Shown piece after piece: positions 37,292 to 54,767 of a DNA stretch of 64,000 nt (within the stretch, counting starts at the first letter, position 1; each line of letters begins with the position of its first letter). Source of the DNA: Bacteroidia bacterium (GTDB lineage: Bacteria; Bacteroidota; Bacteroidia; J057; JADKCL01); contig JAXLVK010000013.1 of assembly GCA_046329055.1 (NCBI GenBank), forward strand, positions 17,959-81,958. The letters are read 5' to 3'. Below the pieces are notes generated by a model, which did no database searches, was not told the origin of the DNA, and worked only from the letters and a program-made list of their open reading frames with translations. A program made the translations under genes and the position numbers.

Positions 37292-37964
37292 TCAGCAGAG
37301 AGAGGCTTTGTCGTGATCTTGAGGGTCTTCTTCTTCGTCGCGACCTCTTTCATCAAGCGGTTCAGCTTCAGGTTGCGCTGCACCTCGTCGCGGATTGCCT
37401 TGGTTTCTTCATGTTCGTCCATGTCCTTCCCTTCTCCGTAATAGTTCAACCATTCAAATGTACAGTGCCTTGCCCCTTCCAAGGCGATGTATCCTTTGTT
37501 GGGAGTAGAGAGCCAAGGGTACTGACAATGCGACTCCTCCGAGGCTGTGGCAGCGGTCTTGCCGAGGAACGCCTGCGAGGTACTGACGATGGTCTGCACC
37601 TCGGCATCGTTGAAAAAATCCCGAGATCGATACTCTCCAACTCAAAATCCGTGGCATAGGCAGTGTAGAACCGCCCCAACGCCCTGTGTTCACGCTCCTG
37701 CACTTGCAGGTCTCCGACTTCCACTAGCTCCTCCAAATAGTACAATGCCTCGACCGGGACAGGGCCGTACTGCTCCTTCTTGTAGCGGAAATCGGTAATC
37801 GGCGAGCCATGCAATGCAAAATGCCCGAAATCAACGCTGAAGAGGTATTTGTAGAGCAGCGTCCGGCTCAGTGGCTTGCGCGCTTCCACGCAGCACGCGG
37901 CAAAGTGCAGGATCAGACCCTGAATCCGATCATCCATGCTGATCTTATGGACGTGTTGCACCAT
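37288..37964 (-). pseudogene. Panacea/SocA (DUF4065) domain antitoxin, interrupted by a frameshift at an A/T homopolymer near 37612-37617
   Basis: The N-terminal part is in ORF 37446..37964 (LLYKYLFSVDFGHFALHGSPITDFRYKKEQYGPVPVEALYYL). The C-terminal part is in ORF 37288..37599 (DFFNDAEVQTIVSTSQAFLGKTAATASEESHCQYPWLSTPNKGYIAL). After ...ELESIDLG the first frame degenerates into Arg/Pro/Ser junk. Confidence 0.65.
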
Positions 37965-38164: not shown

Positions 38165-39967
38165 ATGAAGTTCCACCTCCTACTGCCCTTGCTTTTGATT
38201 GGCTGTACGGCCGCAGCGCAGACCACCTATCCGCCCAATATCTTCGCTGACACCGCGCAGGCGCCTTTCCTTTGGGGTGTGGGCTCATTTGACCCGACGG
38301 CAGACCATGTGATCCTGTGGACCAAGGTCGATCCCCAAGGCGGCAGCAGCCCCATCACCCTGCATTGGGAGACCTTCGGGGACGCGGCACTTACCCAGCC
38401 CATCGGAAACGGCACCGCCATGGCTAGCTCAACCACGAACTGGACTGCGAAGTACGATGTCAGCTACCCCGCCGCGGGCACTTACTACTGGTACCGCTGG
38501 CATGATGGGAACGGGCATTATTCTGCCGTCGGTCGGACCAAAACCGCCCCCACAGGCATGGTGCCGCAGCTGCGCATGGCCGTAATGTCCTGCAGCAGCA
38601 TCTTTTCCGGCTATTTCAATGCCTACCGCCGCATCGGGGAGCGCAACGACCTCGACCTGGTCATCCACTTGGGCGACTACATCTATGATTTTGTGGACCA
38701 GGATGAACAGGTGCGCGTGCCCGTCCCTGCCCCAATCGATCCGCAGACCCTCGCCGAATGGCGCGACCGCCAAGACTACTACCTCCTCGACCCCGACCTG
38801 CGGCTTGCCCGGCAAAACCACCCGTGGACCGTGATTTGGGACAATCACGACGTGGATGGCGACAGTCCGCAACACATGGCCGATGCGATCCAGGCCTTCC
38901 AGGAATACGTCCCCATGCGCCTCCAAAACAGCGGCCAACCCGACAAAATCTACCGCAGCCTGAGCTATGGCGAGCTCGTGGACCTGCACCTGACAGACGT
39001 CGAGACGCAACGGGACATGGACACCCTGCCGAATGGCGACTGGAGCATCATGGGAAATGCGCAATGGGATTGGCTGTCGCAGTCCATCTCCGCGTCCAAT
39101 GCCCGCTGGCACCTGATCGGCAACGAGAAAATGTTCACGCAGTTCAGCACAGCCGGATTGGGCAGCCTCATCAGTTTTGGAGATGGCCCGGTAGCTGATT
39201 CCAGCGCATGGGATGGGTACAATGCCGACCGGGTGCGCCTGCTCGACTACCTCGACCAAAATGGCATCGACAACACGATCATCCTCAGCGGCGACATCCA
39301 CATGAGCTTCATTTGCGATGCACCGAGCGACTACAACAACTACGACCCCGGCACAGGATCGGGCTCCAAGGCCATGGAATTCCTGCCCACGAGCATCAGC
39401 CGGGGCAATTTTGACGAGGCGGGCATCACAGGATTCCTCGCCCAGCTCGTCCAAGTCGCCATCGAGACCGCCAATCCCCACCATGTCCACTCCGAGCTCA
39501 CGAGCCACGGCTATGGCATCCTGGACATCCGCCCCGACACAGCAACAGCCGAGTTCTGGTACTCACCCATCCTCCAAATCTCCACCTCCGAATCCTTCTC
39601 CACGGGCTATTACGCCGTCACCGGGGAAAACCACTGGCGGCGCAGTGCCATCTCCTCCCCTACCGGGCTGATCACCGCACTGCCTGCGCCGGATGAGGTC
39701 CTGCCCATGCGCGTGGAGGTCTTCCCCAATCCGGTGCGCGACTACGCCACCCTGCGCTGGACCGAACCACGGGGCAAATCCGCCAAAATCAGCATCCTGG
39801 AGTCCTCTACAGGCCGCGTGGTCGCCACGCCTGGCGAAATCGGCCACACGTTCAGCAACCATGCCGAGCGCCGCCTCGACCTCCGCGACCTGCCCTCCGG
39901 CCACTACCAAATCCTGCTCGAATCCAGTAGCCAATCCCTTCGAATTCCGTTCGTCCGGTCTCGATGA
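38165..39967 (+). CDS. PhoD-family alkaline phosphatase/phosphodiesterase with T9SS C-terminal domain
   Basis: Signal peptide is MKFHLLLPLLLIGCTAAAQ. PhoD-type metallophosphatase motifs are VIHLGDYIYDF, WDNHDV and ILSGDIHMSF. The C-terminus is VFPNPVRDYATLRW...LPSGHYQILLES. The start is M26 of ORF 38090..39967. Confidence 0.85.
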   Translation: MKFHLLLPLLLIGCTAAAQTTYPPNIFADTAQAPFLWGVGSFDPTADHVILWTKVDPQGGSSPITLHWETFGDAALTQPIGNGTAMASSTTNWTAKYDVSYPAAGTYYWYRWHDGNGHYSAVGRTKTAPTGMVPQLRMAVMSCSSIFSGYFNAYRRIGERNDLDLVIHLGDYIYDFVDQDEQVRVPVPAPIDPQTLAEWRDRQDYYLLDPDLRLARQNHPWTVIWDNHDVDGDSPQHMADAIQAFQEYVPMRLQNSGQPDKIYRSLSYGELVDLHLTDVETQRDMDTLPNGDWSIMGNAQWDWLSQSISASNARWHLIGNEKMFTQFSTAGLGSLISFGDGPVADSSAWDGYNADRVRLLDYLDQNGIDNTIILSGDIHMSFICDAPSDYNNYDPGTGSGSKAMEFLPTSISRGNFDEAGITGFLAQLVQVAIETANPHHVHSELTSHGYGILDIRPDTATAEFWYSPILQISTSESFSTGYYAVTGENHWRRSAISSPTGLITALPAPDEVLPMRVEVFPNPVRDYATLRWTEPRGKSAKISILESSTGRVVATPGEIGHTFSNHAERRLDLRDLPSGHYQILLESSSQSLRIPFVRSR

Positions 39968-39998: not shown

Positions 39999-41207
39999 AT
40001 GGCACTAGTCGCACTCGTTTTCGGAATTGTGGTTGCTGCGAACGCATTGGCGACCTCCAAGCGGATTCTGAACCGTCTGCCCACCTTGAGGATGAAACGG
40101 AACCTGATCCCGCGCACAGGGACGGTGACGCCCAAGCGACTCAAGACCATTGAGCGGGCGATGTCGAGTTGGGTGAACCGCTACACGCTGCTGGGACTAC
40201 TGCCCATTGGCATTTCGGCCGTCGGATTGGGGATCGCGAGTCCATTCTTCGGAGAATTGGGTGTCGCTGCCCTGCTGGGGCTGGCCGGATTCTTGGTGCT
40301 GGGATACGCCTTCTTGCTGCATTTTCCATTGACAGAGCACCGCAAACGCCTTTCCTTCATGGCCTCCCGGCAATTGGTGCGGCATACACGGCCGGAGATT
40401 TCCGAGGAGATCCTGACCCGCGTCGCAGAATCCAGCAGCCCCATGACCCGGTTGGCTGCCGTCGAGGGGCTGCGCGAATTGGGCACCGCCACCGGAAATG
40501 AGCTCTTGCGCCAGCTCAGCGAGGACAAAAACGACCCGGTCGCCGCTGCGGCGCGTGATGCCCTCTCCAACCTGCTTCCTGTGCTCAAGGGCGGGCAAAC
40601 CCTCAGCGTCCGCACCATGGAGACCTATGTCCGAGAGCATGAATTTTGGGAGAAAAAGGTCCGTTCCCAATCCTGGCTCGACAATCCTGGCCCCAGCGAC
40701 CAACTCGCGGAGATCACCCGGCAAATCGATGACATCGTCTTTTCCCAATTGCCCATTCGCAGGGCCTACCCCTACGTCTATTGCATGGACTGCTACTCCC
40801 GTGCCGAGGAAATGCGCCACAATGAATGGGAGTGGATCCGCTGCAAGCAATGCAAGGAGGTCCATGGGCTGAAGATTGGCGTGCGAAAGGTGGTCGGGCA
40901 AATCGGGGGAGAATCCACCTCGCATTTCGAGGAGGGCACGCTCTACTTGCCGCTTTGGGACGAAGGCAGCCACCAAGCCCGGTATGCGGAGCTGGATGAG
41001 TTGCAGGTGATCGGCGGGAAGGAAATCAATTACGACTGGGCAGTAGGGGCATTGCTCCAGAAAATCCACGATCACCACCAAGGCCCGGCCTATACCACGG
41101 GCGTCCGCCTCATCGGGCAACCGCGATTGGAGATGAACTCATTGCAACTCCTCAGGTCGCTGGACCCGAGCGCGACCTCCTTGGAACAAGAAAATTCCGG
41201 GGGCTGA
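39999..41207 (+). CDS. Membrane-anchored HEAT-repeat / C4 zinc-ribbon protein, paralog 1 of 5 (uncharacterised family)
   Basis: Three N-terminal hydrophobic helices (MALVALVFGIVVAANALA, LLGLLPIGISAVGLGIA, AALLGLAGFLVLGYAFLL). HEAT/PBS-lyase-like pair: RLAAVEGLRELGTATGNELLRQLSEDKNDPVAAAARDAL. Zinc ribbon: YCMDCYS...WIRCKQCKE. Family motifs: GVRKVVGQIGG, LPLWDE, VIGGKEINYDWAV. Confidence 0.8.
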   Translation: MALVALVFGIVVAANALATSKRILNRLPTLRMKRNLIPRTGTVTPKRLKTIERAMSSWVNRYTLLGLLPIGISAVGLGIASPFFGELGVAALLGLAGFLVLGYAFLLHFPLTEHRKRLSFMASRQLVRHTRPEISEEILTRVAESSSPMTRLAAVEGLRELGTATGNELLRQLSEDKNDPVAAAARDALSNLLPVLKGGQTLSVRTMETYVREHEFWEKKVRSQSWLDNPGPSDQLAEITRQIDDIVFSQLPIRRAYPYVYCMDCYSRAEEMRHNEWEWIRCKQCKEVHGLKIGVRKVVGQIGGESTSHFEEGTLYLPLWDEGSHQARYAELDELQVIGGKEINYDWAVGALLQKIHDHHQGPAYTTGVRLIGQPRLEMNSLQLLRSLDPSATSLEQENSGG

Positions 41208-41208
41208 G

Positions 41209-42366
41209 ATGTTCCTGATCGGAGTCATACTATCGGCAATCTGGGCTGGGTCTTCGGTGATGTTCGCCTACTCCGACATCGACTTGGACTTGGGGAAGTT
41301 CTATGAGCAGCTGGCGCGGCTGAGCCCCGATGCCCTGCTGAAAAAAGCTCGTCCCTACCTCCTCGCGCATCCGCGGAGGTATGCCGTCAAGACGCTGAAA
41401 TTCCCATTGGCGGCCCTGTTTGCGGTGGGATCGTCTGCGGTGTTCATCTATTCTGGTTGGGAAGTCCTCCTCGGCCATGTGGCTGCAATGGGAGTGGCAA
41501 CTGGCGTCATGCTCACGGCTGGGCCCAAAATCATGGGATGGCGGATTCAGGCATTTGCCCAAGTGGCAGCGCAGATGGTGGCCAGGAAAGTGCCCCCCGG
41601 AGTGGCGATCCCCTTCCTCATCGAGGCAAGCAAGCAGGCGAATCCCTATCAGCGCATTGCGGCGGCAGCTGGGTTGGCGTCATTTCCGGGAGGCAAGGCT
41701 TACGAGCGGCTGGCAGAATTGACGGCGGACAAGGATCCGCGGGTCCGGAACATGGCATTGCAGCGGTTCGGGGAATTGGGACGGTGGCGGGCGATCGTGG
41801 AGCAAGGCAAGGTCAGCATCCCGCCGGAGATCCTCGAACGTGCCGCAGAACTCAAAAGTCCGGTCGCATTGCCTCCATTTCCTCCATTGCGCAGCCGCCC
41901 CAACCAGATCGAGGAGGAAAGGGCCATGATGCCCGTTTTGATCCAACAAGCTGATTTGCGGTGGCATTTCCCGCACCTGCTGTGCAGAAAATGCCTGGCC
42001 CGCCCCAAAGCGCTGGGCACTGGCGAGTGGGTTTGGGTGGTCTGCCGCAAGTGCGGTGAGGCTGACCACCTCGCCACCAATGTCAAGCAGGTGATCGGGG
42101 TGCTGGACGGGAGCTTTTCTTGGTCCCTGCAAATGAAAGGGGAACTTCATTTGGGCCTTTGGGATGAAAGCACAAAGGCGACGCGGATCGCGGACATCGA
42201 TGTGCTGGAGGTGGGGCATGCACCGGGAGTGGACATGAATTGGGCGCTGGCAGCGATCTTGACCGTCTTGGAAGGGAGCGGACGTGATGTGAAAACCAAG
42301 GTTCTGGACGCATCCAGGTTGTCGGAAAACAGCCGCAGGATTCTGGATGGGATGTACAAGCAGTGA
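41209..42366 (+). CDS. Membrane-anchored HEAT-repeat / C4 zinc-ribbon protein, paralog 2 of 5
   Basis: MFLIGVILSAIWAGSSVMFAY plus further TM helices. HEAT pair: QRIAAAAGLASFPGGKAYERLAELTADKDPRVRNMALQRF. Zinc ribbon: LLCRKCLA...WVVCRKCGE. Family motifs: NVKQVIGVLDG, LGLWDE, DMNWAL. It starts 1 nt after the paralog 1 stop. Confidence 0.8.
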   Translation: MFLIGVILSAIWAGSSVMFAYSDIDLDLGKFYEQLARLSPDALLKKARPYLLAHPRRYAVKTLKFPLAALFAVGSSAVFIYSGWEVLLGHVAAMGVATGVMLTAGPKIMGWRIQAFAQVAAQMVARKVPPGVAIPFLIEASKQANPYQRIAAAAGLASFPGGKAYERLAELTADKDPRVRNMALQRFGELGRWRAIVEQGKVSIPPEILERAAELKSPVALPPFPPLRSRPNQIEEERAMMPVLIQQADLRWHFPHLLCRKCLARPKALGTGEWVWVVCRKCGEADHLATNVKQVIGVLDGSFSWSLQMKGELHLGLWDESTKATRIADIDVLEVGHAPGVDMNWALAAILTVLEGSGRDVKTKVLDASRLSENSRRILDGMYKQ

Positions 42367-42508
42367 ATTGCCTCTGCATCGTTCGTCTCGGATCGCCTCA
42401 AAATTTTCCACCTGAATGCCGGAATCCTTAATTTGAGCAAGGCGTTCCAGGCCATGGCGCCACCTCCATCGGTTTCACCCAGCATGAGCAACTAGGCCCG
42501 CAACTTGC

Positions 42509-43693
42509 ATGATATCCTGGCAAGTCATTGAATTCACCATCGAGGTGCTTGCGCCCGTGACCACCTTTTGCACGTTCCTGGTGGCATGGAAAAGCCGTGG
42601 TCAAGCATGGCCCATCCGCCGGAGGAAACGCCTCTGGATCCTTCCCGGAAGGGTTCCGAAGGCGCTCAAGTTTTTGCTCTCACCCCTGATCGTCGTCGCC
42701 CGGTACGCGAGGGTCTCCCCTGCACTGCCCGTCGCGCTGGGACTGGCTGGCGCACTGGCGCTGATGGGGCTCAGTGATGCCGCGTTCAATTCCCTGATCG
42801 GGTATTTCTTGCTGTTTCCCTTGGCGATGATCCGGGATTTGAAATGGTTCCGCACCCAATTGGAGGCGGGGGCCGCACGCTCCCTCGCACAGCAGATGGA
42901 TTCCAAGCATTCCGAGCCCATCTTGCTCAATGCCGCCTCCGACCCGGAAGCCCTGACCCGGCTTGCCGCGATCCCCGGATTGGAGACCCTGGGCACCGAT
43001 GCAGCATTGCAGGCGCTGGAGGCCCTGAGCCATGACCGCAATGAAAAGGTCGCCTCGCAAGCGCACCTCGCCCTGAGCCAAGCCAAGCTTATCCTCCAAG
43101 GCCATCAATTGGAGGAGACGCCGGGCATCATGGACTTGGTCGAGCGCCACCTCCTGCTGCTGGACCAGCTCCAACGCGACGATACCAATCCCGACGAGGT
43201 CGAACCCATCGTTCTCGAGGTGGAATCGATGCTGGATCGTGCTGCCCGCCAATGCCTTCCTGCCCGGCGTGCGTACCCGGACCTGCTCTGCCAGGCTTGC
43301 CTCACCCGCGCCCGGCAAATGTCCTACAAGACATGGGTATTCGTTCACTGTAGGCATTGCATACGGCATGATTTGTTGCAGGCCGGGGTCAAGCGTGTGG
43401 TGGGCGAGATCGGCGGGGTGATGGATTGGGACTTGAAGGAAGGGCTGCTCAAAATCGGGCTTTGGGACGAGGAGCGCAGGACGGCAAGGGCAGCGGATAT
43501 CGAGGCCTTGCACGTGATTGGGGGCTCCAACCTGAACTATGATTGGGCGGTATCGGCTGTGGTGGAGGCGATGCAGCAGTTTCAATCGGAAATGCCAGAG
43601 GCGCTGCCCATCGAATTGATCGACAATCCATCAATTTCCGCCAATAGTGTGGCACTTCTACGTACTTTGTCTCCGAGACTTCAAATGCCATGA
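42509..43693 (+). CDS. Membrane-anchored HEAT-repeat / C4 zinc-ribbon protein, paralog 3 of 5
   Basis: TM helices (VLAPVTTFCTFLVAW, ALPVALGLAGALALMGL, LIGYFLLFPLAMI). HEAT pair: LTRLAAIPGLETLGTDAALQALEALSHDRNEKVASQAHLAL. Zinc ribbon: LLCQACLT...FVHCRHCIR. Family motifs: GVKRVVGEIGG, IGLWDE, VIGGSNLNYDWAV. Confidence 0.8.
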   Translation: MISWQVIEFTIEVLAPVTTFCTFLVAWKSRGQAWPIRRRKRLWILPGRVPKALKFLLSPLIVVARYARVSPALPVALGLAGALALMGLSDAAFNSLIGYFLLFPLAMIRDLKWFRTQLEAGAARSLAQQMDSKHSEPILLNAASDPEALTRLAAIPGLETLGTDAALQALEALSHDRNEKVASQAHLALSQAKLILQGHQLEETPGIMDLVERHLLLLDQLQRDDTNPDEVEPIVLEVESMLDRAARQCLPARRAYPDLLCQACLTRARQMSYKTWVFVHCRHCIRHDLLQAGVKRVVGEIGGVMDWDLKEGLLKIGLWDEERRTARAADIEALHVIGGSNLNYDWAVSAVVEAMQQFQSEMPEALPIELIDNPSISANSVALLRTLSPRLQMP

Positions 43694-44889
43694 TTGCTTC
43701 CCTCGTCATCGGTGCCATACTGGGCACCATCTCCACAGTGGTGATCTTCCGCTGGGTCAAGAACGGCACCCACCGCCTCACGCAGCAAATGGCGGATGCC
43801 ATTGACCAAAGCTCGGGCAGGGGGGTGGTGAGGACCGCTCGCCGTCAATTGCTGCGCCCGCAGTGGCAGCGCGGCATCACCTGGGTGATCTGGCCCGTGC
43901 TTCCGATCGTGAATCCGGTGTATTATTTCATCGCAGTCGGGCCGGAAGGGCTGGTTTTCGTCCTGTCTTACATCGGCACCTACCTGCTCAGCCTCGTCGT
44001 CGGATTCCATTATTGGGGTCGCGAAATCCTGAATGCGTACACACTCTCCACTGGAAAGGTGGTGGCTGTCAAGCTGGTGCGTTACCAACCCGAACAAGCC
44101 GCCGAGGTGCTATTGGCAGCTTCGCAGGACGCCGATCCCATCCATCGCCTTGCTGTGATCCCCGCCTTGATCGAACTCGGCACCCCGCAGGCAGTCGAGG
44201 CACTCAAGACCTTGCGCGCCGATCCCAGTGAAACGATCGCAGAACCAGCCCGCCAAGGATTGATCCTCCTGGAAGGCTATCTGTTGCATCCCAAAGCTCC
44301 CTACCCTGAGTTGCCGACAACGGTCTGGCGCAAGCCCAACATTGGCGAGGAGGGCGATGAGAACCACGGGGGTCGCGTGAAGCTCCATGACCGCAAGAAG
44401 GCCGTTCAGCTCATGGGAGACCAACAAGTCCTGGAGATTCTGCTCCCGCAATTGCCGCTGCGCCGGGGCTATCCCGCACTCTATTGCCGGGAATGCCATG
44501 CGACCGCGCACCGCTACCGCTTCGGGGAATGGGACTGGGTCGAATGCCGCATTTGCGAGAAGCAAGGCAACCTGGAAATCGGCGTGAAACGGGTGTATGG
44601 CGAAATTGGAGGAGACAGCCTTTGGAAATTGGATGACAAGGGCACGCTCCACCTGCGCCTTTGGGATCCCGACCGCAGCACCGTCCTCCAGGCCGACATC
44701 AATGAGCTTCATGTCATTGGCGGCATGGACATGGACTATGACTGGGCGATCAGCGCGACATTGGAGACGTTGGAGAAGCGCCCCGAGGGATGGAAAGTGG
44801 TCTATCACAATCCGCCACGGTTGGCCCGCAACACCCTGATGCTCCTCCAAGCTGGGGGCCATGCAACACCACCCGGCCAAAAACCCTGA
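43690..44889 (+). CDS. Membrane-anchored HEAT-repeat / C4 zinc-ribbon protein, paralog 4 of 5
   Basis: MIASLVIGAILGTISTVVIF plus further TM helices. HEAT pair: IHRLAVIPALIELGTPQAVEALKTLRADPSETIAEPARQGL. Zinc ribbon: LYCRECHA...WVECRICEK. Family motifs: GVKRVYGEIGG, LRLWDP, VIGGMDMDYDWAI. ATGA overlap with the paralog 3 stop. Confidence 0.8.
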   Translation: MIASLVIGAILGTISTVVIFRWVKNGTHRLTQQMADAIDQSSGRGVVRTARRQLLRPQWQRGITWVIWPVLPIVNPVYYFIAVGPEGLVFVLSYIGTYLLSLVVGFHYWGREILNAYTLSTGKVVAVKLVRYQPEQAAEVLLAASQDADPIHRLAVIPALIELGTPQAVEALKTLRADPSETIAEPARQGLILLEGYLLHPKAPYPELPTTVWRKPNIGEEGDENHGGRVKLHDRKKAVQLMGDQQVLEILLPQLPLRRGYPALYCRECHATAHRYRFGEWDWVECRICEKQGNLEIGVKRVYGEIGGDSLWKLDDKGTLHLRLWDPDRSTVLQADINELHVIGGMDMDYDWAISATLETLEKRPEGWKVVYHNPPRLARNTLMLLQAGGHATPPGQKP

Positions 44890-46100
44890 TGGGAAGCCCT
44901 GACGACTTTCCCATGGAGGCCGCGCTTGCCTTTGGCGCTGCAATCGGGGCGACGTCCGTCCTCGCGGTGACACATTTGTTCAGCTCCGTGCAGCACCGCT
45001 TCATCCGCGTCTGGTGCAAGTACCGTGACAAGCAGGAAGACCGCGCTCTGATGCGTCGCCTGCAATTCGCCTTGGGCACCCACCGGTTGACCTTGCTCCT
45101 TCCCTGGACATTGGGATTCTTGAATCCGCTCAACCTCCTCGTTTTTGATGGCAGCAGCCTCCATTACCTTGGTTGGGGGTCCATTTTGGGCTACTTGGGC
45201 ATTTCCTTGGTGGCCTATCCATTCCAGTTGGGCAAGTCCCTGCGGAATTTCAGGGAGGAATTGGCTTGCGAGGCAGCACACCGCTTGGTCGTGAACACAA
45301 GCCCGCAAGACGCAGAGGCAATCCTGTTGCGAGCCGCGAAATCCGGCCAAACCGAACTCAAAATGGCGGCCACCATCGGCCTGCAACGCCTGGGAACGCC
45401 CGCAGGGAACACAGCATTGGAAGATCTCTGCGCGGACAAGGACCTCCGCATCTCTGTTGCCGCCACCAAGGCCTACACCCGCCTGGTCAAGGCCCTCAGA
45501 GACAAGGCCGTCCGCAGCCTCGCACCCATGCCCCAACTCCTCGCCACCTATGAGGAGGAACGACGGAACGCCAACTTTCGATTGGAACGAGACAATATCG
45601 CCAAGTTCCCGGCCCTGCGCAGCGTCGCCAAGGAGATCGACGACATCACCTATTCACAATTCCCTCTGGTGCGTTCGTTTCCCGATCTTGTCTGCCGCAA
45701 TTGCCACGAATTCGCGCTGATGCAGCGGTTCGAGGAGTGGCGCTGGGTCTATTGTCCCAGCTGCGGAGAAGCAACTGCATTGGTCCCGGGCATCCACAAG
45801 ATCGTCGGGACCATCGGGGCGAAGGAGGACTGGGTCGAGCGGGAAAACACGCTGTATGTGAGCATGTGGGACACTGCCCGGAATGTGCCCATCACGACCG
45901 ATCCCAGCAGCCTGCAAGTCCTCGCGGGTGCGGACATCGATTACGACTGGGCCTTGACGGCTGTCACCGAGCTGATTGCCAACCGCCGACCAACGGGTGG
46001 AAAGGACTTTCCGATTCAGTTGCCCGCTTCGATCACATTGTCTGCGAATACACTGGCGGTGATTCGGGGGCAGGCGTACTTGCTTTTAGTTGGTAGTTGA
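44889..46100 (+). CDS. Membrane-anchored HEAT-repeat / C4 zinc-ribbon protein, paralog 5 of 5
   Basis: The start was taken at M34 of ORF 44790..46100 (MGSPDDFPMEAALAFGAAIGATSVLAV), giving a TGATG overlap with the paralog 4 stop and a length matching its siblings. HEAT pair: LKMAATIGLQRLGTPAGNTALEDLCADKDLRISVAATKAY. Zinc ribbon: LVCRNCHE...WVYCPSCGE. Family motifs: GIHKIVGTIG, VSMWDT, DIDYDWAL. Confidence 0.75.
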   Translation: MGSPDDFPMEAALAFGAAIGATSVLAVTHLFSSVQHRFIRVWCKYRDKQEDRALMRRLQFALGTHRLTLLLPWTLGFLNPLNLLVFDGSSLHYLGWGSILGYLGISLVAYPFQLGKSLRNFREELACEAAHRLVVNTSPQDAEAILLRAAKSGQTELKMAATIGLQRLGTPAGNTALEDLCADKDLRISVAATKAYTRLVKALRDKAVRSLAPMPQLLATYEEERRNANFRLERDNIAKFPALRSVAKEIDDITYSQFPLVRSFPDLVCRNCHEFALMQRFEEWRWVYCPSCGEATALVPGIHKIVGTIGAKEDWVERENTLYVSMWDTARNVPITTDPSSLQVLAGADIDYDWALTAVTELIANRRPTGGKDFPIQLPASITLSANTLAVIRGQAYLLLVGS

Positions 46101-46278
46101 TAGGGGATAGTTGACATTTCTGGGAGGTTCGTCACGATTGGGGTTGGAGATTTTGGCGGCACTTTTGTCCGTTCGGAGGCTTGTGGATTGCGGACAGGGC
46201 TCTCGTTCCTGCTATTTGGCAGGCCTCAAATTGCGGACAATGTGATGTGGGCTGAGGCTTATGTGTTGTAGGCCGCCA

Positions 46279-48093
46279 TCAGCGTTTGAGTGAGCTGAAC
46301 AGGCGTGACAGAAAGCCCTTTTGGCCACCGGCTGCATTGATCTCGTCCTGTCCGAAGCCTAGGTCGAGCAGGGTCTTCTCACGGAGACCATGCACCTCGC
46401 GCATCGCTTGCAAGAGCGCTTTCCGGCCGACCGACCCCTTTTCCAATTCCCTGGGCAGTGCCTTGCCTGTCACAAATGCCGCCAAAACTTGGTAATTCTC
46501 CAGCTTTGGCAGCTCCCATAGCTTGGCCAGCACCCACCAAGCACTTTCCTCTCCTCCGGTCCGCTTCAACCAATCCTCCAGCAATTGATACCAGTCGAAT
46601 GGCTTTTCCAAGAGGCAATCAAAGGCGCCTGCATCCATCGCGATGGAGGTCACGGGAAGGTTTTTGTAATTGAAGGCGTCCGGCACCTTGGCCTTGATGT
46701 ATTCGGCGAGGTTTTCGCGGATGCGGGATTCGTTGGGGATCATGGGCAGCAGGCGCAGGTAATGCTGCAACACTGGCAACAGCTGCGACTTGTGGTGCGG
46801 CCCACGGCGGAGCATGACCGCGAGGGACTGAATGGCTTGATTTTCAGGCACAGCGTCCATCACATCCGGATTCGGCGCCTTGAGGGTCCACATCGCTGTG
46901 AGCAAATGCAGGTTGGGGCTCCCGACCATGACCACTCGGGGCTCGGGCGCCTTGGCCACCACCTCTGGGGTCACGCCCCGGTACAAGATCAAGGATTCGA
47001 TGCCCGCAGCGATTTCCATCATGGGGAAGCCACGCATCCAGCAAGACAATTGGTCATGAACCCCCAAGCCGTCCAACAGTTTGCGTGTCCAGTCCTCGCC
47101 CACCATCGGCACTACGACCGCTTCGTAGAGCTTCCGGATCACGCCCGCATTCACCCGCTCAAATTCGGGATCGCTTGGCATCTCAGGTCCAGTCGGGGAC
47201 TTGCTCACCATCGCTTGGGACAGGGCGTGCATCTCGTTCAGCAGCTTGCGTGGCACCCGTCCATTGCGGGACACCTCCAGCAACCAATGCGAAAATGGAT
47301 CGGTAGGGCTGCCATAGGCACGAATCTCCTCATCCGGCCATATCACTTGCGTTCCCAGCTCCGAAAACATCGCTGGGCGGCCCGTCACAGGTTGGATGTC
47401 ACTGAATCCAAAAAGGCGCAGCGGGCTGAAGAAAATCTTGCCACCGTCAAAGGCATCGTTCCAGCCCAGATTGGCCCGGAGGCTCTCAGGCATATAGACC
47501 GCACAGGCTTCGAATGCCTTTGTCACCTCATCGGGAGTGCCCTTGAGCACCACCGAAAGGTCCCTGTTCTGCGTCTGCGCGACATGGTAGGCCGCCATCA
47601 ACAATTCGCCAGGGGGCGCATCGGCCTCGTCGTTCCATACATCGACGACAGGTGCCTGCACCTCGATCGGTGTGATCTTGCCATTGGCGCGGTCCACTTC
47701 CGGTGAATCGAGCAAGGCATCCATGCTGGGGAACTGAAATGGCGCGATCCGCTCGATCAACGGCATGATCGTGGGAATCGGCCGCCAATCCGCCTCGGCG
47801 ATGAAAAATCCCTCGCAGAGGAAGACACCACCCCGGCCATGTTCGTCCTTCACCTCGGGCAATGGACGCAGGCGCAGGAGGATCATAAAGGTCTCGCCTT
47901 TGATCTTCTTGTAGAGGACGGTGGTCTGCCCCTTGGGGTCCACGCCATCCGGGAAGTGGATATGCGACTCGATTTCCAGTACTTCCTTGCCCGTGATGAG
48001 GTCGGCAGGCAGGAATGCGGATTGGAAGCCCCCTTTTCCGGTCGGGCTTTGGGTCTTCGGCAGACGGGTGTAGATGTACCGATGGACTTTCAT
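46279..48093 (-). CDS. Large GTPase-partner protein, possibly GAP1 (GTPase-associated protein 1)-like, with C-terminal MinD-like amphipathic helix
   Basis: The start was taken at MKVHRYIYTRLPKTQSPTGKGGFQSAF (M54 of ORF 46279..48252), 14 nt after the GTPase stop. The N-terminal 'YT....G.GFQ' and 'D..GR.G.F' (KDEHGRGGVFLCEGF) patterns resemble, as I remember them, the N-terminal domains of the computationally defined GAP1 family. The rest is alpha-helical. The C-terminus is GGQKGFLSRLFSSLKR. The coding call is solid; the family assignment is tentative. Confidence 0.55.
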   Translation of the reverse strand: MKVHRYIYTRLPKTQSPTGKGGFQSAFLPADLITGKEVLEIESHIHFPDGVDPKGQTTVLYKKIKGETFMILLRLRPLPEVKDEHGRGGVFLCEGFFIAEADWRPIPTIMPLIERIAPFQFPSMDALLDSPEVDRANGKITPIEVQAPVVDVWNDEADAPPGELLMAAYHVAQTQNRDLSVVLKGTPDEVTKAFEACAVYMPESLRANLGWNDAFDGGKIFFSPLRLFGFSDIQPVTGRPAMFSELGTQVIWPDEEIRAYGSPTDPFSHWLLEVSRNGRVPRKLLNEMHALSQAMVSKSPTGPEMPSDPEFERVNAGVIRKLYEAVVVPMVGEDWTRKLLDGLGVHDQLSCWMRGFPMMEIAAGIESLILYRGVTPEVVAKAPEPRVVMVGSPNLHLLTAMWTLKAPNPDVMDAVPENQAIQSLAVMLRRGPHHKSQLLPVLQHYLRLLPMIPNESRIRENLAEYIKAKVPDAFNYKNLPVTSIAMDAGAFDCLLEKPFDWYQLLEDWLKRTGGEESAWWVLAKLWELPKLENYQVLAAFVTGKALPRELEKGSVGRKALLQAMREVHGLREKTLLDLGFGQDEINAAGGQKGFLSRLFSSLKR

Positions 48094-48107: not shown

Positions 48108-49172
48108 TTATTTTTTCGCCTTGGGCTTGGGAAGGGACTTGGGCAACTGGGGAATGGCCGCCTTCTTGCCTTTGAACCAAGCCAATAGCCTTTGGAGGAA
48201 GCCCTTGGGAGGTGCGGCAGTGTGCTTTCTCCGGGCAAAATCGAGCACCCAAAGGAAGGGGTCAAGGACGCGGAGGGGATTCATTTTCTCGTCCACCTCA
48301 TTTGCCCCCATTGCGCTGACCACGGTGTAACGGACTTCGAGGAAGTGGTCACGGGCCATGTTCGCGAAGCGGGTGCAGCCGAGCTCTTGACGCAGCCACT
48401 CCTCGATTTTGACGCTGACGAGGCCCAGGTCCAGGATCTTTTCCCCGAGGTTCAATGCGTAGTAGTCGCTCGCGCCTTGGACCAGCCATTGCCGGAGGAA
48501 GGGATTGAGCTTGGCGTCGGGGAGGTCGCTCTTGGTGAAGATGATGATCACCCGCTGGGAGGAGCGGATGTTCGCATTGAGCTTGTCGTCGGCGGCGCGG
48601 ATGTAGGTGTCGAGGAGGCGGGTCATTTGATCGTCCAGTTCCTCGTCCTCGCAGTCCGGGATGCTCATGATGAAGAGCACGGTGTCCGCATGCGCCACGA
48701 AAAATCCCGCCCGGGCGATCTGTGTGGCGTCATTGAAGACCTCACCTGCGGTGTCGTAATAGCCCACAAATGCGTCATCGAAGACGGGCAGTTGGTGGTA
48801 ATGCACCAATGCGGGGTTGGGGAAGTTCGCTGGTGTGGATTCGGGGAGGTCGCCTTTTTCGAAGAGGGGCACCTGCTCGTAGATGATGCGGTGCGTGAAG
48901 TCGTCGAGGCTGCGGAAGTAGTAGCCGTTCCAGAAGTTGCTGAATCGCTTGAGCGTGCTGAACAGCGAGGTCAGATAGACGGTCTTGCCATGTCCGGAGA
49001 ATCCGACGACGCCGACCATGGTACGGAGCATGAGTCCGGAATCGAGGAAGGTCTTGGGGATGTCCGTCCGGCAATTGGGGCATTGCGGCACCATGGTCTT
49101 GGTATCCCGGAGGAATTTCTCGACATGTTGCAGGCAATAGGGACAGCGAAGCGATGGTGTTGGCGCAGGCAT
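48108..49172 (-). CDS. Zinc-ribbon-fused Ras-like (TRAFAC-class) P-loop GTPase with basic/amphipathic C-terminal tail
   Basis: N-terminal C4 ribbon: CPYC...CPNC. G1/Walker A: GFSGHGKT. G3: YYDTAGE (DxxG, Ras-like DTAGE). G4: IIFTKSD (N/TKxD). The C-terminus is PPKGFLQRLLAWFKGKKAAIPQLPKSLPKPKAKK. Confidence 0.8.
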   Translation of the reverse strand: MPAPTPSLRCPYCLQHVEKFLRDTKTMVPQCPNCRTDIPKTFLDSGLMLRTMVGVVGFSGHGKTVYLTSLFSTLKRFSNFWNGYYFRSLDDFTHRIIYEQVPLFEKGDLPESTPANFPNPALVHYHQLPVFDDAFVGYYDTAGEVFNDATQIARAGFFVAHADTVLFIMSIPDCEDEELDDQMTRLLDTYIRAADDKLNANIRSSQRVIIIFTKSDLPDAKLNPFLRQWLVQGASDYYALNLGEKILDLGLVSVKIEEWLRQELGCTRFANMARDHFLEVRYTVVSAMGANEVDEKMNPLRVLDPFLWVLDFARRKHTAAPPKGFLQRLLAWFKGKKAAIPQLPKSLPKPKAKK

Positions 49173-49226: not shown

Positions 49227-49305
49227 ACGACCCCAGCGGGGTCCGAACATATGTAGAACACGTGGATAGATTGGCCACGACCCCAGAGGGTCGCACGCGT
49301 CATGA
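49227..49305 (-). repeat. Two REP hairpin elements, inverted relative to the 49909..50300 array
   Basis: The elements are CGACCCCAGCGGGGTCcgaacATATGTAG and CGACCCCAGAGGGTCGcacgcgtcatg. Their reverse complement matches the CTACATACGTGCGACCCCGCTGGGGTCG unit on the other side of the transposase remnant. Confidence 0.6.
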
Positions 49306-50300: not shown

Positions 50301-52548
50301 CGCCGGGCGATGAACATGAAATCGCTGCCGGGTTCGTTGGCGCCGAATTCGCCGTAGCGGGCTCGGGGATGATGAGGCGCTCGTAGAGGACGAGCTCTGA
50401 GGGTGATGATGCGGTCATGGCCGCCGTAGTTGCGCAGGGCGTCGAGGAATTTGCGGGCGTAGGGGCTGTGGTTGCCGGGGATGCCGTCCGGGGCCGTTCC
50501 TTGCCGCCGCTCGTGGGTAGCGCCTGGTCTTGAATGCGAGTTTCCGGTTGATGAAGTCGGTTTGGGTAACTTCCTTGCCGCCGCCGAGGGATTCGTCACC
50601 GCCACGGTGCCCACCACCACTGGCGATGAAGGGGTCGATGGTCCCACCAGGCATACGTCCATCATGAGGAAGGTATGCTTGCAGGGGGATCGCATTCACG
50701 ATGGTGCGGAGGTTGCTGTGGGCGATGTAGGTATCGTTGCCCTCGTCGTCCTTCTCGGAATCGGTGCAGACCCGTAGCCCTCTCCAAACAACTCGTCGAA
50801 TTGCCGTGCCCAGCGATGAAGATGAGCAATTGGTCGTTGTCGGTATAGGCCTTGCGGGCGTATTCCTTGAGCTTCTTGAGCACGTCCGACCTCGGCTGAT
50901 CGAGATGACCAACTCAGTGTTGAATCCGTAGTTGGTCTCCAACTCCTGTGCGATGGTGCGGCAGTCGTTGACAGGGTTCACGAGGTCGCTCCACTGCGCG
51001 TATTCGTCGGTGGCGATGAAGAGGGCGTAGTCGGTGCCTTGGCGGCGGACGACCTGGTCACCGGACTTGGTGGCGACGCGGATGCCGAAGCGTTGGATCA
51101 GGCCGTCCTCGTTCTTCGCCATGAGGCGAATGTCGTTGTAGCCGGGGTTGAGCGGCACTTCCTGGTCCACAAGGACATCGTACTTGCCCTCGGCGTCACG
51201 CTTGGCTTGGAGCTGGACCTGGGTGTCGTTCACAAGGAGCTTGACCCCGGTGAGCTTGGAATCGCTCTTGATGCCCGCCTTGAATTGGATGCTCTTGGCA
51301 TCCACGGTGATGTCCTCGCCCGCAGGGGTGATCAAGGTCACGACCGGAGGTTGCGGCACGTAGCTCTTCTGGCCCTCACGCACGGTGAGTTGATCCATCT
51401 CGATGAGGTTTTCCCCTTCCAATGCGAAGCCGAGGTTTTGCCCGGGCAGGCTCGTGAAAGGGATTTCAGTCATCCAGATGTCGTTCAAGTAGGAAGTTGT
51501 AGCGGGTCCCCGGTCTTGCCGGATCACGAGCTTGTTGGGGGTGCCGCGACCGCTGAGCATCCCTGGTTGCTGGGGGTCCAATCGACGAGGTCTTGGCGAC
51601 GCCATTCTCTACCCGGCGAACGGCAAAGGAGCCGAGGCTGCGGATCAAAAATTGGTAGCCATTCTGCTCATCGGCCATGGCCCAACCGATGCCGTAGCCG
51701 ACCTCTTGGGATCCGGTCACCTGCTTCATGTGGGCTTCGATCTCGAAATCCCGCTCTGGATTCACGAGGACCTCACGTAGCTTGTAGGTGTATTTGGCGC
51801 CCTTGATGTTTTTCATGCGCATGCGGCCCTTGCCCATGGCGCAGTATGAGCTGTCCACGGTGGTGACGCACCATCCGCGGCTGTTGTCATCGAATCCTTC
51901 GGAAAAGATGGCGGGCATGTCCTGAAGCTCGAGCACTTCGAGGCTCTGGACAGCGATTTCCATTTTTCCATTGAGCATGTAGCCTGCCTTGGAACCGAGG
52001 AAGGTCTTGTTGGGCATGCTCCAAACGAACTGATCGTTCAGGTAAAAGGACATCATGCCGTTCACGTTGCGGAGGCTGAGCTTGTTGACCTCGCCTGCGG
52101 GCTTGATGACTCCGGTGGTTGCAGTGAAGGGTTTGAGCTCCTCGATCGCGCCATGGTTGCGGCGGATCACGCGGTACTGTCCGGCACTGTTGATGTTGAG
52201 TGCGAAGAAGCTCGAATCGTCGGCGGCGCCCCATACGAAACCGAATCCATCGGTGGCGCGGCCAAATTTTTGGGTGAGTTTGGTCTGAATGGTGAAGTCG
52301 GGGCTGCCGTTCAGGGGCAATTCCTCGAGCAGAAAGACGGACACGCCATCGGGGACCCTGCCTTCGAGTTTGTAGTTGCCATCGGCGACGGCGGCGAAGG
52401 CCGTTTCGTCGTCAGCGTCTGTCCAGCCGTGGTGGTTGTCTTTGAAATCCTCCCTGAAAATGACCCTCTCCTGTGCACGGAGCCCGGTCAAGCAACCCGC
52501 GAGGGTCACCAGGAACATGATCAACGATTTTCTCACCATGATGCTCAC
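50258..52548 (-). pseudogene. Secreted caspase-family (peptidase C14) protein with N-terminal jelly-roll-like repeats, disrupted by about 6 frameshifts
   Basis: ORF 51466..52548 carries the signal peptide MVRKSLIMFLVTLAGCLTGLRAQ and repeat domains. ORF 50415..51605 continues through the caspase start DYALFIATDEYAQWSDLVNPVNDCRTIAQEL. Another frame (50662..50883) has the catalytic His segment DQLLIFIAGHG. The sequence returns to GNDTYIAHSNLRTIVNAIP. Another frame (50258..50695) has KHTFLMMDVC (catalytic Cys), HSPYARKFLDALRNYGGHDRIITL and FGANEPGSDFMFI. Confidence 0.7.
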
Positions 52549-52778: not shown

Positions 52779-54767
52779 TTACTTCACTTTGGCGATGGGC
52801 ACCATGCCGATGCCGCGCTTGACCATGGTGGGCTTTTGCTTCCAGCTGGTTTGGCCGAGAACTTTGTCGCTCACGTAGTCATTCATTTCTTCGACGGTGA
52901 CGTTGCCGTTGCCGTTTTTGTCGGCCTTGCCGTCCATGGCTTCGAGCATGGCTTGGGCGAAGAGGCTGCCCTTGTCGGGGGTGACGGTGCTCTTCTGCTT
53001 GGCGCTGGTGCTGCTCAGGAAGATGCGGATTTCGTCATCGTTGTCGATCACCTTGCCGAAGTCGGTCTGGACGGCGTCCATGTTGGCATGGCCGATGGTG
53101 GGCGCGCTGGCGTCAGCCTTGGTGGAGTGGCTGGCGTCGAGGAAGTAGAGGGTCGGCGCGCTGTAGCGGCTGATTTCCTCGATCACCCAACGGTTGTCCA
53201 CGGAGGAGACTTCCATTTCGGAGGGGTCGGTCTTCACATCGGTGGGCTTGAGGAAGAAGCTGCCGCCGCTCTCAGCGCCTTGTCCGGCGAAGTAGATGAG
53301 GACGAGGTCTTCCTTGGCAGCCTTGCCCTTCATCTGACGGATGGCGTCTTCGATGTTGGCCTTGGTGGCGTCTTTGTTGCTCAGGACTTTGGTCTTCACG
53401 TCGTTGAAGAGGCGGCCCTTCTGAGCGGTGAAGGCGTTCACCAGGTTGTTGGCGTCGGTGCTGGCGTGAGCGAGGTCGAGGTTGTCGTCGCTGTAGTCGT
53501 CGATGCCGATGGCGAGGACGTGGAGGTCGCGGACCTTGATCTCACGGGCGGGGTTTTTGTACACCACGAAGCGCTCGCCACTGGTGAAGCGGCCCAGGTT
53601 GGTTTCAACTTCGAGGACGATGGAGTTGCCACCCTCGATGAGGGGCAGGGTTTCTTCCACGAAGAAGTCATCGCCGTTGCCTTGCTTGCGGAGCACCACG
53701 TGACCGATTTCCTTGTTGGTCATCTGGTGGTTCAGGCGCAGGGTGAGGTTCTTGATTTCGGGCATTTGCTGGCCCACGCCCGGCTTGAGGCTGAGCTTCA
53801 GGTTGTAGATGGAGTCGGTGACGACGATGTTCTCAGCGGAGGAGCTCCAGTTGATGAGGACCGGGGTGCCGTAGCCGAAGCCACCGCCATCCCAATCGTC
53901 GCCGCGCATTGCCACAGAGCCAGCCTCGAATTGGTCGTAGAAGAGGTTGTTGACGGTGGACTTGGCGTTGGCGCCACGGCCTTTCACAGACTTGCGGGCG
54001 AGCAGGTCGGCGTTGTTGTAGGCGAACTCAGTGGTCTCAGCGAGGATGAGGTCACCGTCTTTTTCCTCGTATTTCTTCATCTCCTTGACGTGGTTGCCGT
54101 CCCAGAAGATGCTCAACTGGGTGTTGAGGCCCACGCGCTGCTCCTTGATCTCGCTCAAGTGGCCGCTGGTGTAGATGTAGGTGGCATTCAGGCCGGGCGC
54201 GTTCATGGCCACGAGTTGGCCGTCGGCGTCATAGGTGTACTGGATGTTCAGGGTCTTGGTGGGGATGCCCTTGGAGAACCAGCGGACGCGGGTCAGCATG
54301 GCGTGGGAGTCGTAGGTGCCTTCGATCTCGCTGTTGTCGGCGTCGTTCTTGAGCACGGACTTGGTCAGGGTACCCTTGCGGTCGTAGTAGAAATACTGAG
54401 CGCTGACGGGCTTGCCAGCGTCCATGGTGCTGACCTTGCGGAGGTGACCCTCGCTGTCGTAGCCGATGTTTTGGACGCGGGTGCCTTCTTCAGCACGGAC
54501 AAGGTTGCCATTTTGGTCAAACTCGAGCATTTTCCGGAAGGTTCCGGTCGCATCGCCCTCTTCCTGCTTGCGGATCTTGAGGACGCCTTTTTCCCTCCAC
54601 TTGTTGTAATTGCCCAGGCTCACTTGCATGCTCGTGGACTCCAACGGGTTGTCCAAAGCCTGCTGCAGCAGCACGTCATTGACGTTTTGCCCGGAGACGT
54701 TGGTGCCCATCAGTACCAGCAATGCCAACAAGGCTGGTGCCGTGATCAGACGCTTCATCATTTTCAT
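52779..54767 (-). CDS. Secreted YD/RHS-repeat plus caspase-like (C14) domain protein lacking both catalytic residues (predicted pseudo-protease)
   Basis: Signal peptide is MKMMKRLITAPALLALLVLMGTNVSGQ (M12 of the ORF). YD-type repeats: FDQNGNLVRAEE, GYDSEGHLRKV, YYDRKGTLTKS, YTYDADGQLVAM. Caspase fold: LHVLAIGIDDYSD...DLVLIYFAGQG (Gln where the GHG His should be) ...TLYFLDASHS (Ser where the DxC Cys should be). Confidence 0.8.
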   Translation of the reverse strand: MKMMKRLITAPALLALLVLMGTNVSGQNVNDVLLQQALDNPLESTSMQVSLGNYNKWREKGVLKIRKQEEGDATGTFRKMLEFDQNGNLVRAEEGTRVQNIGYDSEGHLRKVSTMDAGKPVSAQYFYYDRKGTLTKSVLKNDADNSEIEGTYDSHAMLTRVRWFSKGIPTKTLNIQYTYDADGQLVAMNAPGLNATYIYTSGHLSEIKEQRVGLNTQLSIFWDGNHVKEMKKYEEKDGDLILAETTEFAYNNADLLARKSVKGRGANAKSTVNNLFYDQFEAGSVAMRGDDWDGGGFGYGTPVLINWSSSAENIVVTDSIYNLKLSLKPGVGQQMPEIKNLTLRLNHQMTNKEIGHVVLRKQGNGDDFFVEETLPLIEGGNSIVLEVETNLGRFTSGERFVVYKNPAREIKVRDLHVLAIGIDDYSDDNLDLAHASTDANNLVNAFTAQKGRLFNDVKTKVLSNKDATKANIEDAIRQMKGKAAKEDLVLIYFAGQGAESGGSFFLKPTDVKTDPSEMEVSSVDNRWVIEEISRYSAPTLYFLDASHSTKADASAPTIGHANMDAVQTDFGKVIDNDDEIRIFLSSTSAKQKSTVTPDKGSLFAQAMLEAMDGKADKNGNGNVTVEEMNDYVSDKVLGQTSWKQKPTMVKRGIGMVPIAKVK

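Follow-up and report, generated by a model that had tools for sequence, protein, structure and literature searches.

A 64,000-nucleotide (nt) stretch of a Bacteroidia bacterium assembly (GenBank GCA_046329055.1, contig JAXLVK010000013.1, positions 17,959 to 81,958), referred to here as the window, contains five consecutive forward-strand open reading frames (ORFs) between positions 39999 and 46100, each encoding a protein of 385–403 amino acids (aa). We analyzed these genes, p1 to p5, together with the block in which they lie: a PhoD-type phosphatase gene upstream on the same strand and, on the opposite strand, genes for a GTPase, its partner protein and two caspase-like proteins (Table 1). 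A sequence-only reading of the same DNA had described the five genes as sharing one architecture of N-terminal transmembrane (TM) helices, a HEAT repeat pair, a variable linker and a conserved C-terminal module with a C4 zinc ribbon (ZnR). The positions were as that reading gave them, and the ORFs, TM helices, HEAT_2 matches and CxxC motifs were all found.

Table 1. Coordinates of the five-gene array and of the other genes of its block (positions in the window).
Feature	Position	Strand	Description
PhoD-type phosphatase	38165..39967	+	Pfam PhoD 3e-68, PhoD_N, Por_Secre_tail; 31 nt upstream of p1
p1	39999..41207	+	402 aa; 3 TM, HEAT pair (aa ~126-189), zinc ribbon, module
p1 module	40734-41204	+	aa 246-402; C4 ribbon C262, C265, C282, C285
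p2	41209..42366	+	385 aa; module 41935-42363
p3	42509..43693	+	394 aa; module 43241-43690
p4	43690..44889	+	399 aa; module 44437-44886
p5	44889..46100	+	403 aa; module 45645-46097
GAP1-like partner	46279..48093	-	604 aa, cytoplasmic; convergent with p5
ZnR-DO-GTPase2	48108..49172	-	354 aa; Pfam PF19993, 40.9 bits (cutoff 27)
C14-B caspase-like	~50303..52548	-	exported, lipobox LAGC; tblastn/BLASTP to Peptidase_C14 proteins of L016-L019
C14-A caspase-like	52779..54767	-	662 aa from conserved Met; Peptidase_C14 1e-18, C-terminal; signal peptide

Five tandem paralogs and their C-terminal module

The junctions reported in the sequence-only reading match the ORF coordinates exactly: p1 and p2 are separated by a 1-nt spacer, p3 and p4 share an ATGA overlap, p4 and p5 share a TGATG overlap, and the 142-nt gap between p2 and p3 is the only sizeable one within the array. 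The p5 start was set to the ATG at 44889, in agreement with a 403-aa gene call in the close relative L001; the longest p5 ORF runs from 44790. A scan for sigma-70 promoters and intrinsic terminators returned fewer sites than shuffled sequences and, with a sigma-70 model not built for Bacteroidota promoters, is uninformative on operons. All-against-all BLAST gives pairwise scores of 95–170 bits, so the five genes are true paralogs with similarity far above chance. In a MAFFT alignment, p2–p5 are 21–31% identical to p1, and 25 columns are invariant across the five proteins, including four cysteines, W277, W320/D321 and W347/A348 (p1 numbering).

Hydropathy analysis identifies three TM helices in each paralog, with very short external loops and a K/R-rich loop after TM1. 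Because of the position of this K/R-rich loop, all that follows TM3, i.e., the HEAT pair, linker, zinc ribbon and module, is predicted to be cytoplasmic. Pfam HEAT_2 (PF13646) matches residues ~120–190 at the same aligned position in all five proteins, above the gathering cutoff of 27.7 bits in p2 (28.1), p3 (32.7) and p4 (30.9) and below it in p1 (26.8) and p5 (20.8). It is the sole family that Pfam detects in the full-length proteins, and NCBIfam and PADLOC contribute nothing more. The AlphaFold model of full-length p1 has a pLDDT of 86 and a pTM of 0.76; Foldseek with the full-length model returned generic HEAT/ARM repeats alone (E>0.05). With PBS-lyase/HEAT_2 proteins (NblB, CpcE/F-like; PF13646/PF03130) the paralogs share the HEAT pair of ~70 residues. 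Unlike the paralogs, these proteins carry neither TM anchor, zinc ribbon nor module, and no link to phycobilisomes is apparent here. An NblB/PBS-lyase function was rejected, the similarity being limited to the HEAT pair: the NCBIfam NblB model NF045915 scores the paralogs at 17–19 bits over this pair alone, against a cutoff of 300.

The cysteines C262/C265 and C282/C285 form two CxxC pairs that are invariant in the five paralogs and 16 relatives and that sit on consecutive beta-hairpins in the AlphaFold model. The invariant pairs and the modeled hairpins together support a C4 zinc ribbon in p1–p5. The zinc-ribbon models of Pfam and NCBIfam score the five proteins weakly, below threshold, and a few distant module proteins have a degenerate first CxxC.

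The module as a whole was modeled with confidence when taken alone (pLDDT 92, pTM 0.85), with two zinc-ribbon hairpins leading into a beta-rich alpha/beta domain. Residues ~250–400 have no match in Pfam, NCBIfam or PADLOC. A sequence-profile search of the PDB gave a best E of 0.2, and Foldseek yielded nothing meaningful (best E 0.71 in PDB, with TM-scores of at most 0.31, and 0.059 in BFVD). No housekeeping family emerged from these comparisons, in keeping with the view of the sequence-only reading that the family is uncharacterized. Toprim/RecR-like and Roadblock-like folds were considered for the module and rejected for want of Foldseek support.

For an exhaustive search of 1.84 billion cluster representatives, we built a profile (A2) from the last ~150 residues. 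It retrieved 418 clusters at E<=1e-3, 314 at E<=1e-10 and 79 at E<=1e-30. This search superseded an earlier word-index search with a full-length profile, which had found 13 relatives and missed p3–p5 because HEAT words saturated the candidate list; a metagenome scan by module patterns confirmed zero loci. The module closes the protein in all 418 clusters; the median number of residues beyond it is 1. The main size class, of 380–420 aa with ~3 TM helices, resembles the window genes, and a second class of 600–760 aa carries many HEAT repeats followed by the module. What precedes the module is thus of three kinds, 3TM plus HEAT, soluble multi-HEAT or polytopic TM; the module is the constant, family-defining part, joined to interchangeable N-terminal regions. 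Across 43 diverse modules, the four cysteines, two glycines, W75, Y100, W102, two alanines, N135 and L140 are invariant or nearly so. No catalytic-type set of acidic, His, Ser or Lys residues is conserved among them, for which reason we infer a non-enzymatic binding domain. Module proteins from a Desulfobacterales metagenome-assembled genome (MAG) and from Methanothermobacter sp. K4 are labeled merely "HEAT repeat domain-containing protein". At locus L012 (5195-9908), the gene for a single, long-form HEAT plus module protein of 698 aa runs into the start of a TPR-histidine kinase gene and follows a gene for a protein with PKD and a type IX secretion system (T9SS) tail, and here the module may be used in another signaling context.

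Loci fetched via the module from uncultured Bacteroidota contain tandem arrays of 1, 2, 3, 4, 5, 6, 7 and at least 10 copies. According to a distance tree and best hits, 33 of 44 array members are closest to a protein from another genome, so that the arrays are made up of several old paralog lineages. The most widely conserved of these, the p1-type lineage, includes p1 and was found in 9 loci, while the lineage orthologous to p5 includes L017_2 and L011_1. Recent local duplications are few (L009_1/2, 69% identity; L009_8/9, 63%; L007_4/5, 50%), and copies have also been lost, the related locus L006 being without p2. Recent amplification was rejected, since most copies are orthologous across genomes, which upholds the old duplication proposed in the sequence-only reading. 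Arrays reach at least 10 copies, and single-copy versions of the module protein exist elsewhere. At L004, a gene of the DUF1016/YhcG type (PD-(D/E)XK nuclease-like; 6940-8154) sits within the array between the first and second module genes.

Selection was estimated between the window and the orthologs in L001, a comparison in which dS is ~1 and thus near saturation. The ratio of nonsynonymous to synonymous substitution rates (dN/dS) is 0.11–0.18 for p1–p5, 0.09 for PhoD, 0.07 for the GAP1-like partner and 0.03 for the GTPase, and dN of the paralogs is 2–20 times that of the GAP1-like and GTPase genes. Amino acid identity to the L001 orthologs ranges from 59 to 84% for the paralogs and from 88 to 97% for PhoD, the GAP1-like protein and the GTPase. 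The fastest-evolving copy is p2 (dN/dS 0.18), which is 59% identical to its L001 ortholog, compared with 88% for PhoD. Region by region, dN/dS is flat across the paralogs (0.12–0.17); identity among the paralogs is 33% in the module, 30% in the HEAT pair and 17–18% in the TM and linker regions. At the level of substitution rates, these data show p1–p5 to be functional, fast-evolving genes under purifying selection, and the possibility that they are pseudogenized relics was rejected on the same ratios.

Linkage to a GTPase and a GAP1-like partner

On the opposite strand, the GTPase operon converges on the array, with a 178-nt gap (46101-46278) after p5. The sequence-only reading had the array directly abut a GTPase-centered operon: the two are indeed adjacent, but as convergent opposite-strand genes separated by this gap. 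The GTPase has one N-terminal ZnR (CPYC...CPNC), the P-loop GFSGHGKT and the motifs DTAGE and TKSD, of which the latter three are invariant in the GTPase alignment A6. It thereby combines the two hallmarks of DO-GTPases, TRAFAC motifs with a Glu in Walker B and an N-terminal zinc ribbon, and its homologs in related loci are likewise annotated as DO-GTPase2. Published DO-GTPases carry 1–2 ZnRs (PMC7159879). A single GTPase gene is present in the window and in L001, L010, L016–L019, L023–L030 and L048; two occur solely in the most distant loci, L041–L047.

In every locus of this subfamily, the partner gene directly follows the GTPase gene, and neither protein of the pair has a signal peptide or lipobox. 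The Pfam models GAP1-N1, GAP1-N2, GAP1-M and GAP1-C gave no match at E<=1 for the window partner or 15 relatives. A profile of the partner family (A7) was compared by hhalign with a profile (A8) of the partner-like proteins of the most distant GTPase loci, which include that of L039, a Pfam GAP1-N2 match with 37.8 bits. The two profiles align over 386 columns with a probability of 99.8% and an E of 4e-28. Because of this match to GAP1-N2-positive proteins, profile comparison shows the partner to be a divergent GAP1 of the N2 type. This identity agrees with the DO-GTPase2 assignment of its neighbor, because the two DO-GTPase subtypes track the two GAP1-N types (PMC7159879).

Loci were retrieved by three routes, via the module, via the partner and via the GTPase. 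By way of the module, the GTPase/GAP1-like pair was found to adjoin module genes in the window, L001, L010 and the Methanothermobacter locus L048. Partner homologs with 28–50% identity led to L017, L018 and L019, in which pair and module genes are adjacent, and to L016/L008, which place both on one contig. The GTPase alone retrieved 28 metagenome loci at 28–60% identity, which were annotated with hidden Markov models (HMMs). All six of those at 35–40% identity with enough flanking sequence (L023, L024, L026, L027, L029, L030) have module genes beside the GTPase and partner. Four of them (L023, L024, L029 and L030) have a module gene on the GTPase strand and immediately ahead of the GTPase gene, with an overlap onto the GTPase start in L029. 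Three kinds of proteins end in the module across these six loci: a soluble 760-aa multi-HEAT protein (L023), a single-TM HEAT protein and polytopic proteins of 9–10 TM helices that lack HEAT repeats. The genomic coupling of module genes to the GTPase/GAP1-like pair is therefore seen from three starting points, in same-strand operons and in an archaeon, and the conserved neighborhood that the sequence-only reading had anticipated exists.

HMM annotation found no PhoD or caspase genes in L023, L024, L026, L027, L029 and L030. Distant operons (L023, L026, L029, L030, L048) also encode a ClpB-like AAA_2 ATPase, an NrdG-like radical-SAM activase, a coiled-coil protein of ~308 aa ("MSGxKYS"), a protein of ~350 aa and one of ~210 aa (FGE-sulfatase-like). 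The archaeal module protein P0133 (Methanothermobacter sp. K4, L048), which was retrieved independently, adjoins this operon including DO-GTPase2 and the GAP1-like gene. At 65% identity, the AAA+ proteins of L023 and of the archaeon point to horizontal transfer. Since distant and archaeal loci keep the trio of module protein, ZnR-DO-GTPase2 and GAP1-like protein in the absence of PhoD and caspases, this trio is what Bacteroidota, other metagenomic lineages and one archaeon have in common.

Closer to the window, more of the block recurs. All nine clade loci whose upstream side is visible (the window, L001, L004, L005, L006, L008, L009, L017 and L019) have a same-strand PhoD gene 16–43 nt ahead of the array, down to a PhoD identity of 50%. 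In the contexts of partner homologs, the recurring clade block consists of two Peptidase_C14 genes, DO-GTPase2 and the partner on one strand, with PhoD and 1–2 module genes converging on them; genes flanking the block vary between loci. In L008/L016 (JANORP010000086.1), ~20 kb of polymorphic-toxin-like genes separate the GAP1-like gene from a 6-copy array. This insert encodes a 2285-aa protein with eCIS_core, TNT and YwqJ-deaminase domains, a 943-aa eCIS_core protein and a MORN_2 protein, and the junction looks like an insertion hotspot for conflict genes. The sequence-only reading had identified neither the GTPase as Pfam DO-GTPase2 nor the partner as a divergent GAP1, and it lacked the same-strand PhoD gene, the two exported caspase-like genes and the single-copy, soluble multi-HEAT and polytopic versions of the module protein.

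A candidate sensor or adaptor repertoire

Kaur, Burroughs, Iyer and Aravind (eLife 2020; PMC7159879) predicted "GTPase-centric" conflict systems in which DO-GTPases and GAP1 are joined by a GASH or FNIII-repeat protein and by variable effectors, often near the membrane. Their framework combines a constant core of NTPase and GAP1 with a variable, non-enzymatic repeat protein as "sensor" and with frequent membrane association, and 38% of DO-GTPase systems have two paralogous GTPase genes (PMC7159879). A literature search on DO-GTPase2, GAP1-N2 and related terms returned this 2020 survey and one passing mention (PMC11237479). The HEAT/TM plus module protein is absent from the text and supplement of the survey, in which "HEAT" appears once in the text, in a vWA context (PMC7159879). 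Because independently retrieved loci repeatedly join the module, ZnR-DO-GTPase2 and the divergent GAP1-N2, the array belongs to a system of this predicted type, in which no such component was described.

The resemblance to GAP1-N2 systems extends over several features: a ZnR TRAFAC GTPase matching Pfam DO-GTPase2 with a GAP1-type gene directly downstream, a variable non-enzymatic repeat component, components that often contain TM helices, associated genes that include those for caspase-superfamily peptidases and FGS domains, and a patchy, mobile distribution that includes archaea. The differences are equally specific. The window has one GTPase with one ZnR, against two ZnRs or paired GTPases in the published type; its GAP1 has diverged beyond the reach of the Pfam GAP1 models; an FNIII-repeat protein is lacking, the fn3 model giving no Pfam match in any gene of the window block or neighboring ORF; the caspase-like proteins are exported; and the third component is amplified to 5–10 or more tandem copies.

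The five genes form an expanded tandem set of one part of a predicted three-part NTPase-switch system. We propose, with middling confidence, that the module serves for docking and that the set provides a sensor or adaptor repertoire of variable specificity. The module would act as a docking domain that plugs each paralog into a shared cytoplasmic GTPase–GAP1 core at the inner membrane face, and the variable TM, HEAT and linker parts would confer a distinct specificity, for a ligand or a membrane state, on each paralog. The array would thus constitute a repertoire of alternative sensor or adaptor subunits sharing one core and might fill the role proposed for the rapidly evolving FNIII-repeat proteins of canonical GAP1-N2 systems. 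Like the FNIII component, it consists of rapidly evolving, non-catalytic repeat proteins beside a GTPase–GAP1 core, and the proposed sensor role is the same. Unlike FNIII beta-sandwiches, the HEAT repeats form alpha-solenoids; the array varies by whole-gene paralogs rather than by repeat turnover within one protein; and it has a membrane anchor and what may be a dedicated C-terminal docking module. The GAAD and EAD adaptor domains would offer a parallel, as system-specific constant domains that couple interchangeable parts to a core. The module differs from both in having ~150 aa, a C4 ribbon, a beta-rich alpha/beta domain and no detectable relatives: GAAD, from GAP1-N1 systems, is small and all-alpha, and EADs pair homotypically. 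The "sensor or adaptor repertoire" proposed in the sequence-only reading fits the published logic of these systems.

Several observations weigh against a sensor or adaptor repertoire. The periplasmic loops are a few residues long, which precludes direct sensing of periplasmic ligands. In the window clade the array converges on the GTPase operon and is not co-transcribed with it, and its position favors co-transcription with PhoD instead. Two loci, L012 with the long form and L014 with 3 copies, lack a GTPase within 10 kb. The dN/dS ratios are uniformly low, without a HEAT-specific rise or localized diversifying signal, and hence give no direct sign of an arms race, although the near-saturated dS blunts this test. 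Finally, the polytopic versions without HEAT repeats would fit an effector or channel equally well.

This last point leads to an alternative that we regard as unlikely, in which the array proteins would be effectors whose TM helices (3 here, 9–10 in distant homologs) perturb or permeabilize the inner membrane on activation, while the HEAT and module part would be a GTPase-controlled lid, by analogy with the SLATT 2TM effectors of DO-GTPase systems. Pore-forming TM effectors have been described in these systems (PMC7159879), distant homologs join the module to polytopic membrane domains that lack HEAT repeats, and the window block holds no other cytoplasmic or inner-membrane effector, given the signal peptides or lipoboxes of PhoD and the two caspase-like proteins. 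Yet the same operons include TM-free soluble multi-HEAT plus module proteins such as the 760-aa protein of L023, neither SLATT nor any other pore-former family shows similarity to the array proteins, and up to 10 diverged copies under purifying selection are better explained by differing specificities than by redundant pore formers. Cytoplasmic caspases that act on the array in the manner of gasdermin cleavage were likewise considered and rejected, both caspase-like proteins having signal peptides.

The exported neighbors raise the question of a housekeeping role outside conflict, in which the array, co-transcribed with PhoD, would assist or regulate the export, sorting or activity of PhoD and the caspase-like lipoproteins under control of the GTPase, in an envelope- or phosphate-related function. 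The constant position of PhoD ahead of the array, a type I phosphodiesterase gene downstream in L005, the exported nature of every other non-core product of the block and the suggestion that DO-GTPases act in membrane-related stress (PMC11237479) are all in line with it. We nonetheless judge it improbable: neither PhoD nor caspases occur in the distant and archaeal trio loci or in L010 and L018; what the distant systems have in their place, radical-SAM, FGS-like and ClpB-like AAA+ genes along with toxin–antitoxin modules, is typical of conflict islands; and a copy number of 1 to at least 10 combined with fast evolution is atypical of housekeeping genes. Very improbable, in our view, is an incidental adjacency of an independent family, e.g., a set of HEAT-type immunity proteins that counter polymorphic toxins and happen to lie in a variable island. 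Tandem, diversified arrays are typical of immunity-gene banks, the toxin-like genes (eCIS_core/TNT/deaminase, MORN) between array and GAP1-like gene in L008/L016 would suit such a bank, and so would the two loci without a nearby GTPase. Against this stand the recurrence of the trio in same-strand operons across domains of life and by all three retrieval routes, the lack of a nearby toxin gene at most arrays, and a C-terminal module and membrane anchor that are foreign to known immunity families and have no Pfam or PADLOC match.

A bolder version of the repertoire reading, which we consider possible yet doubtful, would make the module a structurally new docking domain that defines a third core component of DO-GTPase2/GAP1-N2-like switches in Bacteria and Archaea. 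The Bacteroidota arrays, with 5–10 or more diverged, membrane-anchored HEAT paralogs, would be a germline-encoded receptor repertoire that feeds one NTPase switch, a counterpart in prokaryotes of innate immune loci with multiple receptors. DO-GTPase/GAP1 systems are known from one computational survey alone and none has been characterized experimentally. To these systems the present analysis adds an easily recognized, conserved third component with a domain that has no sequence or structure relatives, and it documents the large tandem-array amplification of this component in Bacteroidota. The trio of module protein, GTPase and GAP1-like protein defines a minimal set for reconstitution and interaction tests. 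One constant module, presumably for docking, on many variable HEAT/TM parts at 1 to at least 10 copies per locus offers a natural experiment on sensing and its targets. More than 400 protein clusters now labeled only "HEAT repeat domain-containing protein" gain an annotation, and the GAP1 family reaches beyond the detection range of the Pfam models.

Remaining genes of the block and window

PhoD has a signal peptide with lipobox (N-terminus MKFHLLLPLLLIGC) and a C-terminal T9SS sorting domain. C14-A is intact and 49–74% identical to the first block gene in L016–L019. C14-B occupies at least two frames: the ORFs 51466-52548 and 50415-51605 overlap, and a C-terminal piece lies in a third. The orthologs in L016–L019 are intact (740–755 aa), and the window copy is either a pseudogene or a MAG sequencing error. 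PADLOC-DB v2 searches with the paralogs, partner and GTPase detected no known anti-phage defense system and gave only marginal generic matches (HEAT-ARM_XIII, 0.008–0.018; HerA, 0.072).

Between C14-B and the GTPase, an 88-aa reverse-strand ORF (49300-49566) ending in ...YIENQKEHHRKRTFREEY... has no Pfam match. We take it to resemble the C-terminal remnant of an IS200/Y1 (RAYT-type) transposase. Positions 49909-50296 hold ~7 tandem units of 49–50 nt, most with a GACCCCnnnGGGGTC-type palindrome, and ORF and units together are, assuming that the transposase resemblance is correct, a REP/BIME-like insertion.

Ahead of PhoD, the reverse strand encodes a RelE-like 144-aa ORF (36857-37291; Pfam RelE, sub-threshold at E=0.0019), followed by a SocA/Panacea antitoxin-like gene broken into two ORFs in different frames (37288-37599 and 37446-37964). 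The SocA-like ortholog in L001 is intact (225 aa), and the window copy has a frameshift or MAG error. Farther away, the window contains very large ORFs of 1865 and 1937 aa, together with a protein of 1047 aa that ends in a T9SS sorting tail (4430-10027, 21869-27682 and 58113-61256), as well as two PhyH-family dioxygenase genes (31392-33179 and 61569-63515), which is consistent with a Bacteroidota genome rich in secreted proteins.

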